From positions 6,045-70,044 of the forward strand of contig JAKPFN010000089.1 of assembly GCA_029551395.1 (NCBI GenBank): 64,000 nucleotides of DNA. The letters run 5' to 3'. The DNA is from Armatimonadota bacterium (GTDB lineage: Bacteria; Armatimonadota; UBA5829; DTLH01). A program made the position numbers and the translations under genes. Shown in pieces: positions 40,750 through 48,060 of the stretch (position 1 is its first letter; the number at the start of each line of letters is the position of its first letter). Below the pieces are notes generated by a model. That model made no database searches. It was not told the DNA's origin and saw only the letters and a program-made list of their open reading frames with translations.

Positions 40750-40945
40750 TATTCATCCGCCTATCTCTCGGGAGGGATTTGCCGTCTCTCGGGAGGAATT
40801 TGCCGTCTCTCGGGAGGAATTTGCAATTCCTCCCGGACATATTGCTGAGGGATCTGTGATCCCGGATGATTAACAAAAATACCAAGGAACGGGATTGCAA
40901 ATCCCTCTTTTGCTCTTCCGGGCTAAATTGCAAATTTAGCCCGAG
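40750..40945. repeat. Left arm of a ~200-bp imperfect inverted repeat bounding the 41-47.8 kb operon
   Basis: 'CCTCCCGGACATATTGCTGAGGGATCTGTGATCCCGGATGATTAAC(A)AAAATACCAAGGAACGGGATTGCAAATCCCT...CCGGGCTAAATTGCAAATTTAGCCCGAG' is the reverse complement of 47849..~48000. Contains 3 tandem 'TCTCGGGAGG(G/A)ATTTGC' units and the palindromes 'GGGATTGCAAATCCC' and 'CCGGGCTAAATTGCAAATTTAGCCCGG'. Confidence 0.85.
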
Positions 40946-41018: not shown

Positions 41019-41047
41019 GTTGACATCTGCTGCCGATAATAATATAT
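41019..41047 (+). promoter_or_regulatory. Candidate sigma70-type promoter for the NuoE/NuoF-GltD operon (followed by a ~315 nt leader)
   Basis: 'TTGACA'-17 nt-'TATATT' ('ttgacatctgctgccgataataatatatt'). Confidence 0.4.
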
Positions 41048-41232
41048 TGAAAGTACTAAGGAGCCGTCTTGTGAGGCAGGTTGACCTGTTCAACCTTCTC
41101 ATAAGATGACAAAACTGACCAAGAAGGAATAGGCAAAGGCAGCCTATAGCCGAGTGGCTGGTTGTTCTTGCAGTGTTGCACGGGACATAAAACCAATATC
41201 TTGGACCAATACCGCCTGCAGTAATCTCAGCA

Positions 41233-42261
41233 ATGGGGCTGAGCCGGATGGCAGACTCAGGTCTTAGACCTCAAACAACCTGCAAAGACACCGCAAAGCA
41301 TTTGTTTTGCACCAACCAGCCATATTCGACATTCCTGGCAGCGCAGCAAGGAGTAGAAGAAATGGTCTTAAATGTAGAGCCTTCGTGCAAGACATGCACC
41401 TGCCACGAGGAAGTGGATTTATCGCATGTCGAGAAGATTCTGGCCAAATACAACAATGACCGAGCCGAATTACTCTCGATTCTTGAGGAGGTTCAGGCCG
41501 ATTATGGCTATCTCCCGCAGAATGCACTTCGAATGGTGGCTGAAAGAACAGGCTCCTCGATGGTCGACGTTTTCGGCGTCGCCACTTTCTACCGCGCATT
41601 CAACCTCAAACCCCGAGGCAAACACTGCATCTCTGTGTGCATGGGAACAGCCTGTCATGTTAAAGGTGCGCCGAATGTAGTAAAAGAGTTCGAGCGTCAG
41701 CTTGGAATCTCTGTTGGCGAAACTACCCCAGACAACGAATTTACGCTTGAAACAGTCAATTGCCTTGGAGCAAGCGCACTGGGGCCAATCGTAATGGTTG
41801 ACGGGCATTATTTCTCCCATGTCACTCCCGCAAAAGTAAAGTGGCTCCTGTCAATGGTTCGTGCAGGACTTGATAAGGTCGATGTAAAGACTGATAGCCG
41901 GATAATCCACCTGGATGTGCTGTGTCCTCACTGCAATCAAAGTCTGATGGATTCTGTGCATCCAATAGACGGCTGCCCATCCATCCATACGACCATAACC
42001 TTTAACGGGGTTAGCGGTCATGCAAGATTGTCATCTCTTTATGGAAGTTACTCCATTCAATCAGAGCCTGATGCACCTGTGGGAACTACAGTTGACTTTT
42101 TCTGCCCATCGTGCAATAAAAAACTTACGACGACATCCAGATGTCCCGAATGTGGTGAGTTGATGGCATTGATGAGAGTAAGTGGGGGCGGTGTAGTACA
42201 AATCTGCACGCAGCGTGGATGTAAAGGGCATATACTAGACCTGAGTGAAATCGATATCTAA
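41233..42261 (+). CDS. NuoE/HoxE/HydC-like thioredoxin-fold [2Fe-2S] subunit with a C-terminal zinc-ribbon-like extension
   Basis: 'LSILEEVQADYGYLPQNALRMVAERTGSSMVDVFGVATFYRAFNLKPRGKHCISVCMGTACHVKGA...VNCLGASALGPIVMVDG' is the NuoE-family 2Fe-2S module. The C-terminal ~130 aa carry CxxC pairs ('CPHCNQ', 'CPSCNK', 'CPECGE'). The likely true start is ATG ~41363, with RBS 'AAGGAG' and Met 'MVLNVEPS'. Confidence 0.75.
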   Translation: MGLSRMADSGLRPQTTCKDTAKHLFCTNQPYSTFLAAQQGVEEMVLNVEPSCKTCTCHEEVDLSHVEKILAKYNNDRAELLSILEEVQADYGYLPQNALRMVAERTGSSMVDVFGVATFYRAFNLKPRGKHCISVCMGTACHVKGAPNVVKEFERQLGISVGETTPDNEFTLETVNCLGASALGPIVMVDGHYFSHVTPAKVKWLLSMVRAGLDKVDVKTDSRIIHLDVLCPHCNQSLMDSVHPIDGCPSIHTTITFNGVSGHARLSSLYGSYSIQSEPDAPVGTTVDFFCPSCNKKLTTTSRCPECGELMALMRVSGGGVVQICTQRGCKGHILDLSEIDI

Positions 42262-42314: not shown

Positions 42315-45300
42315 TTGATGGAAAGACTGACTTCCGTTGAGGAGTTTCGGACACTGCAGAGTCGCGTCATTGCAGCTTTAGACCCTACAGTTCCTACCAT
42401 AGTTATCCCGGCCGGCACTTGCGGACAGGCTAGCGGTGCGAGTGATCTGATCAGAGTCGCAAAACGTTATCTCTTGGAAAAACGTTTAACTGATAAGGTT
42501 CGCTTGCGCATCACTGGATGTCATGGGTTCTGCGAAATGGAACCTTCCGTGCTTATCGAACCGCAAAAAACATTCTACCCTCGGGTAAGCATGAGAGATG
42601 TCTCCCGGATCATAGATGCCGCTGTAGAGGGAAAGGTGATCGAAGAACTCCTTTTTGTAGATCCAACGACCGGGGAACGGATTCGCAAGCAAAGTGATAT
42701 CCCATTTTTCAAAAAACAGTTCCGTTTGTTGATGGAAAGAAATGAGCGGGTAGACCCAAGACGGATTTTGGACTATATAGAGTCTGGTGGATATACAGCG
42801 CTGGCAGAGGTACTTGCAGAACGTGATCCTGAATGGGTTGTGTCCGAGGTCAAAGCGTCTGGACTGAGAGGCCGCGGCGGAGCTGGATTTCCTACGGGGA
42901 TTAAATGGGAAATGCTGGCAAAGCAGCCGAGCGATAAAGGCAAATTCATCGTGTGTAATGCTGATGAAGGCGACCCAGGAGCCTACATGGACCGCAGTAT
43001 CCTCGAAGGCAACCCACACAGCATCATTGAAGGGATGATCATTGGAGCTTTTGCGACTGGTGCGACTGATGGGATCATATATGTGTGCTGCGAGTTTCCT
43101 CTGGCTATTAAACATATTGGTATGGCATTGGAACAGGCGTATGAACTCGGGCTGCTGGGTGAAAACATTTTAGGCGCCGGTTTCTCCTTTAATATGACTA
43201 TGGTTAAAGGCGCTGGGGCATTCGTCTGCGGCGAAGAAACCGCCATGATCCACTCTATCGAAGGTTATACCGGCGAGCCAAGGCAAAGACCTCCATTTCC
43301 CATCCAAAAAGGAATAAACGGCAAGCCTACTGCCATTAATAATGTCGAGACATGGGCCAATATCCCGATTATCATCAGGGATGGCGCAAAAGCTTATGCC
43401 AGTATCGGCACTCCAAACAATTCCGGTACAAAAATCTTTAGCTTGGTCGGCAAGGTCAAACACACCGGGCTTGTTGAGATGCCTATGGGTACCACAATCG
43501 GAGAGATTGTATATAACGTAGGCGGTGGAGCTGTTGGCAACAGCGAAATCAAGGCTGTGCAGACTGGCGGGCCTTCAGGTGGATGTATTCCAGCAAGCAG
43601 CTTCGATCTTCCTGTAGATTATGATACGCTGGCTAAGTTCGGTTCGATTATGGGGTCTGGCGGCATGATCGTCATGGATGAAGATACGTGTATGGTCGAT
43701 GTTGCCAAATACTTCATGAACTTCCTGAAGAATGAGTCCTGCGGCAAGTGCTTTACCTGCCGTAAAGGCACTCAGCGGATGTATGAACTGCTGGAAGATA
43801 TTACTCTGGGAGCAGGTACTCCTGAAAGTATAGCTCTTTTGGAAGAACTTGCGTATGTAGTCAAAGACACGACGATGTGCGGTCTAGGGCAGTCGGCATC
43901 GAATTCCGTTTTGAGTTCGCTTAGGCATTTCCGCAATGAATATGAACAGCATGTAGTTGAAGGAAAATGCCCCTCTTATGTATGCAAGGATTTGGTAGGG
44001 GTGCCTTGTCAGACTGCCTGTCCGGTAGGGACTGAAATCTGGCGGTATATTGCGCAGATAGAGCACAAAAATTATGTAGATGCGTATAAAACAATACGTG
44101 AGTCTAACCCATTTCCATCGGTATGTGCTCGAGTGTGCAATCATCCGTGTGAAGACAGATGCAAATCCGGCACAAGCGGCGGGCAGCCAATCAATATCAG
44201 GGCTTTGACGAGGTTCGTTACCGATAATGTCGACCCAGGCGTTTATAAACCGGTAATTGAGCCACAGTTTGGAGATAAACATCCTCAGGTTGCTGTTGTT
44301 GGCGGAGGGCCAGCCGGACTGACAGCCGCGCATTATCTTTCTTTGAAAGGCTGCAAGGTTACTATCTTCGAGCAGGAATCTGAGCTTGGAGGAATGCTTC
44401 TTTCCGTAATACCGGAATACAAGCTGCCAGGAGAGGTTCTAAAATCGGAGATTGCCTCTTTGCTTAACGATAACATCACGCTCAAATACGGCACAGTGCT
44501 TGGGCGAGACATCACTGTTGATGGCTTGTTGAAAGACAACTTCGATGCTGTGTTCCTGAGTTTCGGTGCTCATAATAGTTCTGGGCTGCAATCGGACATT
44601 AAGGATATTCAAGGCGTTTATCCATTGCTGGATTATGTTAAGTCGGTAAATCTGAGAGGCGAAAACCTTGCTATTGGTAAGGTTGGCATCATTGGAGGAA
44701 GCGTTTCTGCTATTGATGCTGCCCGGACAGCCATCAGGTCGGCTAAAGCTGAGAGCGTAACGGTCTTTTATCAAGGGACGCGCGAAGATATGCTGGCAGC
44801 GAAAGATGAAATCGATGCTGCCATCGAAGAAGGTGTCAGTATTGAAACTCTGGTGTCTGTTGAAGAGATCCTCTCTCAAGACGGCAAGTTGGCAGGGGCC
44901 AGGATAGTTAAAAGCAGACTTGGAGACTTCGATTCGGATGGCCGAAGAAGACTTAAGCCGATTGCAGGGAGTGAACAAAAGGTAGATTTGGACACTCTCA
45001 TCATAACCGCATCGGAATCTCCAGATGTGGAATGTTTGCTGAGTAATAGTCATCTAAGCATCGATCTCAATGCTGACGGGACTATAAAAGTGGATGTTGG
45101 AACACTTGCTGCCAGTATTCCCGGTGTCTTTGCTGGAGGTGATATAACCGGCCAGGTTAGCGTCATCGATGCAATCGCAGCAGGAAAAAGAGCTGCTGAG
45201 TCTATTAGCTGTTACCTGCAAGGTAAAGTATATAAACCATCAACTGGTATCCAACTGCCGCAGGTTTTTATAGAACCAAACAGATCTGAAGAAGATGCAA

Positions 45301-45467
45301 GCGGACAAAGCGCCCGGGTCAAGCTTCCAAAGATCGATGTCAGTGAGCGACGTGGAAACTTCAAGGAAGTCGAGATTTCGCTTACACCGGAAAACGCTCT
45401 AAAAGAAGCCGGAAGATGCCTGAGGTGTGATCTGGACTTCTTCAAGTGCAAAGAGTGCCAGGAGTAA
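42315..45467 (+). CDS. Fusion protein: NuoF-like NADH-binding FMN/[4Fe-4S] flavoprotein module + GltD/NfnB-like [4Fe-4S]x2 FAD/NAD(P)H oxidoreductase module
   Basis: N-terminal half: 'GLRGRGGAGFPTGIKWE' (NuoF NADH/FMN site), 'ESCGKCFTCRKGTQRM' (NuoF 4Fe-4S), SLBB-like region. C-terminal half: 'CPSYVCKDLVGVPCQTACPVGTEIWRY...VCARVCNHPCEDRCK' (GltD/DPD-type N-terminal Fe-S domain), 'VAVVGGGPAGLTAAHYL' (FAD), 'VGIIGGSVSAIDAARTA' (NAD(P)H), 'GVFAGGDI'. 1050 aa. The start is more likely ATG 42318. Confidence 0.8.
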   Translation: MMERLTSVEEFRTLQSRVIAALDPTVPTIVIPAGTCGQASGASDLIRVAKRYLLEKRLTDKVRLRITGCHGFCEMEPSVLIEPQKTFYPRVSMRDVSRIIDAAVEGKVIEELLFVDPTTGERIRKQSDIPFFKKQFRLLMERNERVDPRRILDYIESGGYTALAEVLAERDPEWVVSEVKASGLRGRGGAGFPTGIKWEMLAKQPSDKGKFIVCNADEGDPGAYMDRSILEGNPHSIIEGMIIGAFATGATDGIIYVCCEFPLAIKHIGMALEQAYELGLLGENILGAGFSFNMTMVKGAGAFVCGEETAMIHSIEGYTGEPRQRPPFPIQKGINGKPTAINNVETWANIPIIIRDGAKAYASIGTPNNSGTKIFSLVGKVKHTGLVEMPMGTTIGEIVYNVGGGAVGNSEIKAVQTGGPSGGCIPASSFDLPVDYDTLAKFGSIMGSGGMIVMDEDTCMVDVAKYFMNFLKNESCGKCFTCRKGTQRMYELLEDITLGAGTPESIALLEELAYVVKDTTMCGLGQSASNSVLSSLRHFRNEYEQHVVEGKCPSYVCKDLVGVPCQTACPVGTEIWRYIAQIEHKNYVDAYKTIRESNPFPSVCARVCNHPCEDRCKSGTSGGQPINIRALTRFVTDNVDPGVYKPVIEPQFGDKHPQVAVVGGGPAGLTAAHYLSLKGCKVTIFEQESELGGMLLSVIPEYKLPGEVLKSEIASLLNDNITLKYGTVLGRDITVDGLLKDNFDAVFLSFGAHNSSGLQSDIKDIQGVYPLLDYVKSVNLRGENLAIGKVGIIGGSVSAIDAARTAIRSAKAESVTVFYQGTREDMLAAKDEIDAAIEEGVSIETLVSVEEILSQDGKLAGARIVKSRLGDFDSDGRRRLKPIAGSEQKVDLDTLIITASESPDVECLLSNSHLSIDLNADGTIKVDVGTLAASIPGVFAGGDITGQVSVIDAIAAGKRAAESISCYLQGKVYKPSTGIQLPQVFIEPNRSEEDASGQSARVKLPKIDVSERRGNFKEVEISLTPENALKEAGRCLRCDLDFFKCKECQE

Positions 45468-46153
45468 TGAGTATGGTCAACTTTGTTTTAAACGGTTTGC
45501 CTGTTAGTGTTGAGAAAGGATCGACAATACTGGAAGCCGCGCAGTTTTATGGTTTTCCTATTCCAACGTTATGTCACATGGAAGGACTTTCGCCGTACGG
45601 TGCGTGCCGTCTTTGCGTAGTAGAGATAGGCGAAGGACCAAGGGCCAAGCTTGTTACATCCTGTACTTATCCGGTTGAGGAAGGCCTGAAGGTGCGAACT
45701 GCCTCAGAGAGAGTGATTAAAGCACGGAGGATGGTCATAGAGCTTCTTTTGGCTTCGTGCCCGCAGTCTAAAACAATACAAGACCTTGCCTCCGCGCATG
45801 GAGTGAGACAGCAGCGCTTCAGGCAGGAATATGAAGACTGCATACTGTGCGGACGCTGCATACGGATGTGCAAAGAACAGATGATGGCAAAAGCTATAGG
45901 TTTCAGGGGCCGTGGCGAAGGAAGGTCCATCGGTACTCCCTTTGATATGAAGAGTGAACAGTGCAGGCAGTGTGGCGGCTGCATCTATGTATGCCCTGCC
46001 TGCCAGTTGAGATGCACTTACACCGAGCCGGAGAAAGCGGTGTGCGGTGGATGCGCGAATCTGACACCTCCTTGTGTCGAGAAAGATTCGTTTGATGATA
46101 TGATGTGTTATATGAACCCATGTGTAGCTTGTGAAATCAAGAAGGACCTGTAA
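45446..46153 (+). CDS. Ferredoxin subunit: 2Fe-2S (NuoG/HydA N-terminal type) + two [4Fe-4S] motifs
   Basis: 'VNFVLNGLPVSVEKGSTILEAAQFYGFPIPTLCH...GACRLCVVEI' (Fer2_4-like 2Fe-2S), 'CILCGRCIRMC' and 'CRQCGGCIYVCPAC' (4Fe-4S). The start is probably the internal Met 'MSMVNF' overlapping the upstream stop. Confidence 0.75.
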   Translation: MQRVPGVMSMVNFVLNGLPVSVEKGSTILEAAQFYGFPIPTLCHMEGLSPYGACRLCVVEIGEGPRAKLVTSCTYPVEEGLKVRTASERVIKARRMVIELLLASCPQSKTIQDLASAHGVRQQRFRQEYEDCILCGRCIRMCKEQMMAKAIGFRGRGEGRSIGTPFDMKSEQCRQCGGCIYVCPACQLRCTYTEPEKAVCGGCANLTPPCVEKDSFDDMMCYMNPCVACEIKKDL

Positions 46154-47816: not shown

Positions 47817-47848
47817 ATTATCAATGTGCAGTAATTTGAAGAATAACC

Positions 47849-48060
47849 TCGGGCTAAATTTGCAAATTTAGCCCGGAATAGTGGATTAGGGATTTGCAAT
47901 CCCGTTCCTTGGTATTTTAGTTAATCATCCGGGATCACAGATCCCTCAGCAATATGTCCGGGAGGGATTGCAAATCCCTCCCGAGAGATGAATCCCTCCC
48001 GAGAGTGTCCCTCCCGAGATAAGGTTCGTCTGGGAGGCTAGGAATCCCCTCACGAGATAG
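47849..48060. repeat. Right arm of the ~200-bp inverted repeat (reverse complement of 40750..40945)
   Basis: 'CTCGGGCTAAATTTGCAAATTTAGCCCGG...GGGATTTGCAATCCCGTTCCTTGGTATTTTAGTTAATCATCCGGGATCACAGATCCCTCAGCAATATGTCCGGGAGG' plus degenerate 'CCCTCCCGAGAG' tandem units. Confidence 0.85.

Follow-up and report, generated by a model that had tools for sequence, protein, structure and literature searches.

What does a single polypeptide do that joins the flavoprotein of an NADH dehydrogenase to the flavin module of an NAD(P)H oxidoreductase? The question is raised by an open reading frame (ORF) in a 64,000-nucleotide stretch of contig JAKPFN010000089.1 from an Armatimonadota bacterium (the whole stretch is hereafter the window). 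In this ORF, a NuoF-type half with a flavin mononucleotide (FMN) site runs directly into a GltD-type half with a flavin adenine dinucleotide (FAD) site. A first-pass annotation, made from the sequence alone, read it as a fused Nfn/Stn-type bifurcating or confurcating enzyme with two independent pyridine-nucleotide sites. The reading that we hold, with a little better than even confidence, is that the ORF supplies the B subunit, the site of NADH oxidation, of a Bfu-like enzyme with four subunits, in whose family a GltD module replaces the ferredoxin docking, and that the NADP(H) pocket of the window copy has decayed. The complex would be a cytoplasmic iron-sulfur (Fe-S) flavoenzyme composed of NuoE-like, NuoF::GltD, HoxU-like and FMN TIM-barrel subunits.

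Two halves on one chain, second in a four-gene operon

The ORF is uninterrupted on the forward strand from 42315 (TTG) or 42318 (ATG) to 45467. Translation likely starts at the ATG, about 11 nt past the ribosome-binding site aagaaggaa, and residues are numbered from it. All five motifs quoted in the first-pass annotation lie in this frame, with GLRGRGGAGFPTG at residue 182, ESCGKCFTCRKG at 473, VCARVCNHPCEDRC at 602, GGGPAGL at 662 and GGSVSAID at 793. Pfam places Complex1_51K (142 bits), NADH_4Fe-4S (106), Fer4_20 (82) and Pyr_redox_2 (79) in that order on the single chain. Between the first two, SLBB scores 25.4 bits, just below its cut-off of 27, and HydB chains align there ungapped. NCBIfam assigns residues 146-546 to nuoF_fam (TIGR01959, 466 bits) and residues 515-1047 to GltD-type models. 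Among PDB sequences, residues 29-560 match HydB-type subunits (E = 1e-195), and residues 562-1045 match the GltD-like domains of Stn/NfnA-type subunits (E = 1e-91).

The N half (residues 26-562) is about 60% identical to the B subunits of solved electron-bifurcating enzymes, namely NiFe-HydB (7T2R), NfnB (9N5U), HydB (7Q4V, 8A6T and 7P5H) and StnB (8OH5). It carries both an N-terminal thioredoxin-like domain and a hinge motif, neither of which is found in complex I NuoF. The former has three conserved cysteines (C35, C68 and C72), as in C. saccharolyticus NfnB. In the NuoF core, GLRGRGGAGFPTG, NADEGDPGA and CGEET are family-invariant, as are the B1/N3 ligands C475, C478, C481 and C521. The hinge motif, H545-x5-C551-x4-C556, is the final element that fused and unfused NuoF variants have in common.

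The GltD half finds its best PDB matches in 9BOV_A, 9N5U_A and 8OH5_C (E = 1e-80 to 1e-91), followed by NfnB/NfnL, GltD and dihydropyrimidine dehydrogenase. Its FAD motifs (GGGPAGL, FE, LGG and FAGGD) are intact. The segment ‘NF.EV...EA.RCLxC’ is C-terminal in the fusion and in StnC/NfnA-type modules but N-terminal in NfnB and GltD, and the half reads as circularly permuted, as in StnC/NfnA. Cysteines for two [4Fe-4S] clusters are invariant at positions 564, 568, 603, 607, 611, 615, 1034 and 1037, the last two completing the eight ligands. Judged by its sequence, the ORF consists of a NuoF half of HydB/BfuB type, which is complete, and a GltD half of StnC/NfnA type. Both domain assignments of the first-pass annotation are borne out by Pfam, NCBIfam and the invariant ligands, as is its broader comparison with bifurcating enzymes, both halves being closest to Bfu/Stn subunits in the PDB alignments.

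A protein search of 5.8 billion sequences returned, among the matches listed, a single fragment with 99% identity and, at full length (1047-1118 aa), 119 clusters formed at 90% identity. The clusters share the domain set of the fusion, with 59-63% identity to it, and originate from Planctomycetota, Acidobacteriota, Ignavibacteria and others; their labels go no further than ‘FAD-dependent oxidoreductase’ or ‘NuoF’. We also scanned genomes with the FMN protein of the operon as probe, which gave at least 597 confirmed genome stretches; 80 species-representative loci were examined in detail. The fused ORF is present in about 64 of these, spread over many phyla.

The proposal that a frameshift, in sequencing or assembly, has artificially joined adjacent nuoF and gltD genes can be given practically no weight. 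The frame is continuous, and the junction, in which H545-x5-C551-x4-C556-K-D/E-L is followed by PCQxACP, is gap-free and kept in 179 aligned homologues. An artefact is excluded because the same fused ORF recurs in those ~64 independent, unrelated genome loci, besides the 119 full-length clusters. The fusion is genuine. At one locus, in a Zixibacteria metagenome-assembled genome (L020, 5101-8248), the NuoF and GltD parts match separately across a 170-nt gap and the NuoF-part ORF is only 572 aa long; the cause could be a gene that is truly split or a frameshift in the assembly.

The fusion is the second of four tightly packed genes, in the order NuoE-like, NuoF::GltD, HoxU-like and FMN protein. 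The same genes in the same order were found at five loci (L001-L005) reached via three fusion homologues, and at the 80 species-representative loci wherever the sequence sufficed. In the window, the HoxU-like start overlaps the stop of the fusion (TAATG), and AAGGAG precedes the fourth gene. The HoxU-like protein has a [2Fe-2S] site, two CxxCxxCxxxC(P) motifs and nine more conserved cysteines, with no GltD insertion. The true start of the NuoE-like protein may lie further downstream than 41233.

Table 1. Features of the operon, the fusion protein and their surroundings in the window
Feature	Position	Strand	Basis or remark
Left arm of inverted repeat	40766..40945		Repeat search, alignment, blastn (87% over 181 nt)
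Sigma-70-like promoter match, TTGACA-17-TATATT, 11/12	41020..41048	+	Consensus match only, upstream of operon
NuoE-like (BfuC-type) thioredoxin-like [2Fe-2S] subunit	41233..42261	+	Pfam 2Fe-2S_thioredx (PF01257) 168 bits, Zn_ribbon_6; NCBIfam NuoE/HoxE
NuoF::GltD fusion protein, 1049 aa	42318..45467	+	
N-terminal thioredoxin-like domain, HydB/BfuB type (B2 site)	42393..42647	+	Alignments to 7t2r_B, 9n5u_B, 7q4v_B; conservation
NuoF core, FMN/NADH site and [4Fe-4S] B1/N3	42753..43955	+	TIGR01959, Pfam, column counts
H545-x5-C551-x4-C556 motif, B5/Zn hinge site of Bfu B subunits	43950..43985	+	Alignments, conservation; PMC12018979
GltD-type Fe-S domain (Fer4_20)	43998..44228	+	Pfam 82 bits; PMC10482914
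FAD / NAD(P)-binding two-Rossmann domain	44286..45158	+	Pfam Pyr_redox_2, alignments
Degenerate NADP(H) pocket, IIGGSVSAID ... FYQGTREDMLA	44688..44798	+	Family V/I-I-GGG[ND]SA[VI]D ... YRRT..EMPA
C-terminal segment with ‘NFKEVE...EAGRCLRCD’	45315..45464	+	Alignments to 9n5u_A, 4ylf_B, 5jca_L; conservation
HoxU / NuoG-N-terminal-like Fe-S subunit, 225 aa, minimal BfuA	45467..46153	+	Pfam Fer2_4 61 bits, Fer4_7; NCBIfam HoxU / FeFe A6 N-terminus
FMN (beta/alpha)8-barrel subunit, 529 aa	46167..47756	+	Pfam Glu_synthase 50 bits; AlphaFold2 pLDDT 86.6; fold searches
Right arm of inverted repeat	47848..48019		Repeat search, alignment, blastn

The end of the NuoF-like subunit and its NADP(H) pocket

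Thirteen of the loci carry a NuoF-like gene of only about 616 aa, which ends after the same hinge motif in a 2x[4Fe-4S] ferredoxin-type (Fer4 dicluster) domain. In its domain content this short form conforms fully to BfuB. When the NuoF cores are placed in a neighbour-joining tree, short and fused forms interleave in at least eight separate places, which indicates that the ferredoxin-like and GltD endings have been exchanged repeatedly. The GltD module takes the position of the C-terminal ferredoxin-like (B3/B4) domain. As 13 sister operons end NuoF in that domain, what the module replaces is therefore the part that serves as the ferredoxin exit in the solved Bfu enzymes. In NfnABC of T. sibiricus, the ferredoxin-like domain carries the B3/B4 clusters, is supplied with electrons by C1, the mobile cluster of NuoE type, and is where ferredoxin docks (PMC12018979). 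The low-potential exit of the solved Bfu structures is thus reached via C1 and then B3/B4; in the family described here the GltD module would sit at that exit instead, and in most members NADP(H) at the GltD FAD would take over ferredoxin's role as third redox partner. Turnover of the substrate would take place at the FMN subunit, to which electrons would travel from the NuoF FMN by way of B1 and the HoxU-like clusters.

The arrangement is related to, and yet distinct from, that of Stn/NfnABC (S. ovata 8OH5, C. saccharolyticus 9N5U and T. sibiricus). Both have a NuoE-like subunit, a HydB-type NuoF-like core and an E-F-G-like gene order, as well as a permuted GltD-like FAD module with eight cysteines for two [4Fe-4S] clusters; GxGxxG and FAGGD are present in the fusion. 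In Stn/NfnABC, however, the GltD module is part of the NuoG-like A subunit (StnC), where it feeds the mid-potential path (PMC7483475, PMC10482914), and the B subunit keeps B3/B4, whereas here GltD ends the NuoF-like subunit. The first-pass contrast with known enzymes, that the two parts are here fused rather than encoded separately, fails on this insertion within the NuoG-like subunit. Stn/NfnABC further comprises three subunits, whereas here the A subunit is the minimal HoxU-like protein and a fourth, FMN-binding subunit is present in every operon examined. The NADPH pocket of Stn/NfnABC is functional (GxGxxA, YRR, EMPA), in contrast to GGSVSA, YQG and DMLA in the window, where T631 and K702 stand in place of K170 and R239.

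The closest match of the N half is the B subunit of HydABC and NiFe-HydABCSL, the Bfu prototype (7T2R, 7Q4V, 8A6T and 7P5H; E = 1e-195, ~60% identity), whose thioredoxin-like domain, FMN/NADH site, B1 cluster and H-x5-C-x4-C motif all recur in the fusion. Unlike HydABC, the operon lacks a hydrogenase subunit and any H-cluster domain, another module stands in place of the ferredoxin-like C-terminal domain, and the third-substrate module is an FMN TIM-barrel, which is not among the Bfu types listed in the Bfu survey (PMC9304861). Compared with the domains by which that survey recognises Bfu enzymes, the window operon has the BfuB FMN/NADH domain (IPR011538 / PF01512, 142 bits), SLBB with the NuoF [4Fe-4S] B1 domain (PF10589, 106 bits), and a BfuA homologue in the HoxU-like protein ([2Fe-2S] plus 4Fe-4S ferredoxin-type domains). 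The [2Fe-2S] C1 domain of BfuC is recognised (PF01257, 168 bits), but with Ser181 at the fourth ligand and an extra Cys132. The C-terminal 2x[4Fe-4S] domain (IPR017896, B3/B4) is lacking: the fusion has no Fer4-type match, and Fer4_20 follows the hinge.

The same survey defines BfuB by its ferredoxin-type domain and never mentions glutamate-synthase-like partners (PMC9304861), and the fused form appears to have fallen outside it. In the full-text literature we found no description of this operon or of a NuoF::GltD fusion. The building blocks are known; what we did not find described is a GltD module of Stn type standing where B3/B4 would be, the constant association with the FMN subunit, and the series of ferredoxin-like, GltD-intact and GltD-degenerate forms.

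Residues were compared in an alignment of 184 family members, the window protein included. The NADP(H) Rossmann motif, GGG[N/D]SA[V/I]D in the family, is GGSVSAID in the window (G795S, N796V); the arginines that hold the 2'-phosphate, YRR in the family, are replaced in YQG (R819Q, R820G); and the conserved proline of EMPA is lost in DMLA (P826L). Each of these five substitutions occurs in one sequence of the 184, that of the window, and the other 183 are canonical. More broadly, 15 of 114 near-invariant columns deviate in the C half of the window protein, compared with at most four in each of the 183 others and with 5 of 202 in its own N half. The ratio of C-half to N-half identity is 0.76 for the window, the lowest of 174 sequences (median 0.87). 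Both GGSVSAID and YQG are also present in the 99%-identical NCBI fragment (P0001) and, because this fragment is independent, they are not an error of the window assembly alone.

Two further substitutions concern residues of known effect. K631T replaces a family-invariant lysine equivalent to K170 of StnC, and R702K a family-invariant arginine equivalent to its R239. In S. ovata StnC, K170 is a strictly conserved ligand of the FAD-proximal cluster, and the K170A and K170C variants are nearly inactive; the activity of R239K is much reduced (PMC10482914). The FMN, FAD and Fe-S ligands of the fusion are kept, while the NADP(H) pocket and the K170/R239 equivalents are substituted. The loss of key binding residues in one half, which the first-pass annotation had named as evidence against its own reading, is thus seen at one site. 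Its ‘GGSVSAID’ is not an intact Rossmann site, G795S/N796V being unique among the 184, and its two pyridine-nucleotide sites hold for the family (183 of 184 canonical) but probably not for the window protein. The window copy would have lost NADPH binding, leaving an enzyme with probably one working pyridine-nucleotide site.

The partner subunits in the window are affected unequally. Deviations in near-invariant columns number 0 of 91 in the HoxU-like protein, 3 of 261 (all conservative) in the FMN subunit and 2 of 45 in the NuoE-like protein, including C181S. At Ser181 (41773-41775) the NuoE-like protein reads CLGASALGP, compared with CLGACALGP in 60 relatives, the cysteine that is the fourth ligand of the [2Fe-2S] C1 cluster being replaced. 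Cys132 (41626-41628), four residues ahead of the ligand Cys136, is leucine in the family, and the pair may represent a ligand swap. Because the HoxU-like and FMN subunits are nearly untouched while the NuoE C1 site and the GltD half deviate, the damage is confined to the putative low-potential branch, that is, C1 plus the GltD module. As a separate observation, the NuoE-like protein ends in a family-conserved extension (residues ~230-342; 41920-42261) with four cysteine pairs and a histidine (C..C, CP.C, C..C, C...GC..H), which gives a weak double zinc-ribbon match in Pfam and is not mentioned in the Bfu papers examined.

With the invariant NADP(H)-pocket residues, the lysine that tunes the FAD-proximal cluster, a flavin-near arginine and one NuoE-cluster cysteine all lost, the window enzyme would be a plain NADH:substrate oxidoreductase. 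Electrons would pass from NADH to FMN, to B1, to the HoxU clusters and on to the N-terminal cluster and FMN of the fourth subunit, with the GltD half remaining as a vestigial or re-purposed Fe-S/FAD appendage.

The first-pass alternative for the window protein, a single-chain Nfn/Stn-type bifurcating or confurcating transhydrogenase with NADH working at the FMN and NADPH at the FAD, is in our view improbable. It draws on the kinship of both halves with Bfu/Stn subunits and on NADPH motifs (GGG[ND]SA.D, YRR, EMPA) that are intact in 183 of the 184 members. Exactly these motifs, however, are missing from the window protein, together with the K170 and R239 equivalents, and a third partner would find no ferredoxin-like B3/B4 domain. 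Moreover, a fourth and more conserved FMN subunit is always co-encoded, and the operon is also found without any GltD module. As the whole story, a self-contained transhydrogenase is ruled out by the invariant four-gene operon and the GltD-less variants; of the first-pass Nfn/Stn assignment the relatedness of the halves stands, while the self-sufficiency of the chain does not, given the NuoE-like, HoxU-like and FMN subunits that accompany it. Likewise, NfnAB/NfnSL (T. maritima 4YLF, P. furiosus 5JCA) has a GltD-like large subunit homologous to the C half (E = 1e-60 to 1e-68), but the operon proteins include no NfnA/S (FNR-like [2Fe-2S]/FAD) subunit, the module is permuted, and the window has lost the NADPH motifs.

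The family might consist of true electron-bifurcating Bfu enzymes, in which NADH oxidation is split so as to serve both an acceptor of low potential and, at the FMN subunit, a substrate of higher potential; the window copy would have lost its low-potential branch secondarily. The low-potential acceptor would be ferredoxin in the short variant and, via the GltD module, NADP+ in the fused one. We rate this as a serious possibility that falls short of probable; it is compatible with the B-subunit reading given above. Several features speak for bifurcation: the N half is about 60% identical to proven bifurcating B subunits, the B1 site, the B5 motif and the N-terminal domain are kept, and a NuoE-like partner is present. 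The ferredoxin-like and GltD endings are interchangeable at the B3/B4 position (PMC12018979), and the damage in the window is restricted to C1 and the GltD module. On the other hand, Bfu membership by definition needs the ferredoxin-type domain that is absent from the fusion (PMC9304861), and the thermodynamics hinge on the substrate of the FMN subunit.

The FMN subunit and the surroundings of the operon

Databases call the FMN subunit an ‘FMN-binding glutamate synthase family protein’, a label derived from a Pfam match that is only partial (residues 281-402, 50 bits, cut-off 20.4). There was no NCBIfam match, and no meaningful PDB sequence match even at E = 10. Profile comparison with the FMN domain of E. 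coli GltB aligned only 82 columns, around the GGTGxSP phosphate-binding strands, and left the GltB [3Fe-4S] cysteines unmatched. At its N-terminus the subunit has an invariant C31-x2-C34-x3-C38-x3-C42. An exhaustive representative search showed the family to be compact, with 1067 representatives at E <= 1e-3 and 179 at E <= 1e-30.

Structural modelling with AlphaFold2 from a diverse alignment of this family gave a confident (beta/alpha)8 model (predicted local distance difference test, pLDDT, 86.6). Foldseek matched the model to lactate monooxygenase, glycolate oxidase, flavocytochrome b2, IDI-2 and glutamate synthase alike, at E ~1e-9 to 1e-10. By these results the fourth subunit is an FMN barrel, fed by Fe-S clusters, and it is presumed to be the catalytic subunit of the complex. 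Our best guess for its substrate is a 2-oxo, 2-imino or 2-hydroxy acid tied to glutamate/2-oxoglutarate metabolism.

The subunit is 79-87% identical across Armatimonadota, Planctomycetota, Zixibacteria, Ignavibacteria, Acidobacteriota, Latescibacterota, Scalindua, Smithella and Syntrophorhabdus, which could reflect either extreme constraint or frequent horizontal transfer. This cross-phylum identity is far above that of the fusion (~61%) and of the NuoE-like protein (~55%). An NCBI entry with 100% identity to the FMN protein of the window belongs to an Armatimonadota metagenome-assembled genome. A distant relative (P0370, 800 aa, 37% identity) has an N-terminal 2x[4Fe-4S] domain and an FrhB/FdhB-type F420-binding module fused to it. 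The same catalytic barrel seems to be plugged into varied electron-input modules.

These properties also bear on whether the complex is a novel glutamate synthase, in which GltD would feed a GltB-like FMN subunit directly, the NuoE/NuoF/HoxU module would serve as NADH (or bifurcating) input, and the reaction would be the ammonia-dependent reductive amination of 2-oxoglutarate. We consider this unlikely, though less so than the transhydrogenase. In its favour are a Glu_synthase score of the FMN subunit above the Pfam threshold (50 bits vs 20.4), the GGTGxSP motif in this subunit, the natural partnership between GltD and GltB, the presence of NtrC-type sigma-54 regulators at 40 loci and of glutamate dehydrogenase at 11, and P0370, in which the same FMN domain is joined to an FrhB-like F420 module. 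With GltBD and dihydropyrimidine dehydrogenase the complex shares a GltD-like Fe-S/FAD module and an FMN (beta/alpha)8 barrel that receives electrons via Fe-S clusters and, with GltB, the GGTGxSP phosphate-binding region. It differs from GltBD in having no Ntn glutaminase domain, GXGXG domain or [3Fe-4S] site (Cys-x5-Cys-x4-Cys), with the N-terminal CxxCxxxCxxxC instead; in addition, the GltD topology is permuted and a whole NuoE/NuoF/HoxU module is attached.

Analysis of the neighbouring genes at the related loci revealed a GAF-histidine kinase upstream of the operon in 36, an NtrC-type sigma-54 activator in 40 and a PPDK_N/receiver protein in 13. A gene for glutamate dehydrogenase (~446 aa) adjoins the operon in 11 loci from several phyla, with both fused and unfused NuoF, in three arrangements: upstream (L024, L031, L038, L040), downstream (L034, L041, L081) and convergent (L004, L005, L048, L061). 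Because sigma-54 regulators and glutamate dehydrogenase recur beside the operon, a link to glutamate/2-oxoglutarate or nitrogen metabolism is suggested. Within the 64-kb window itself there is no homologue of the regulator, kinase, glutamate dehydrogenase or PPDK-like protein, and reading by eye found no sigma-54 GG-N10-GC match upstream of the operon. A cycle of glutamate dehydrogenase and the complex that yields reduced ferredoxin from NADH was also considered and, by reasoning only, dropped on thermodynamic grounds.

An inverted repeat of about 181 nt brackets the whole operon in the window, with 87% identity overall and 93% over a core of 124 nt. Each arm contains three tandem 21-nt units (TCTCTCGGGAGGAATTTGCCG) and several palindromes built on ATTTGCAAAT; the inner palindrome of the right arm, CGGGCTAAATTTGCAAATTTAGCCCG, also scores as a terminator-like hairpin. 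The repeat has two copies only in the window and none in 85 related loci. No transposase lies between the arms, and the GC (guanine plus cytosine) content there is the same as in the flanks. The bracket could be the boundary of a mobile cassette or of an invertible segment, or a pair of regulator sites. Elsewhere, in an Acidobacteriota metagenome-assembled genome (L077, 3336-3552 and 15371-15689), inverted repeats of ~100 nt with 79-82% identity flank a 12-kb segment that contains the operon; apart from this, long-range inverted repeats among 84 related loci were limited to a single 45-nt match in L082.

Three versions of one complex

Taken at its widest, the material would describe an undescribed Bfu branch of at least ~600 species in more than 10 phyla. 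Such a branch would have a new, near-invariant FMN-barrel catalytic subunit (glutamate/2-oxoglutarate-related, or acting on another 2-oxo/hydroxy acid), a ferredoxin-docking domain repeatedly swapped for an NADP-reducing GltD module and, in the window, a horizontally delivered cassette with a decayed branch. We offer this full picture tentatively, and doubt that all of its parts will hold together.

The complex is common in phyla of sediment and soil from which few members have been cultured, among them Planctomycetota, Zixibacteria, Ignavibacteria, Acidobacteriota, Latescibacterota and Armatimonadota; the database labels ‘glutamate synthase family’ and ‘NuoF’ will probably misdirect the reconstruction of their metabolism. 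For Bfu-type (HydABC-like) bifurcating enzymes, the open mechanistic question is where the low-potential branch lies and how it is gated. Here, nature offers three versions of one complex: one with the ferredoxin-like B3/B4 domain, one with GltD, FAD and NADPH in its place, and that of the window with the nucleotide pocket destroyed. A biochemical comparison of the three would test directly what the low-potential branch does, and the repeated domain swap, if true, would amount to a ready-made experiment on this branch of the Bfu enzymes.

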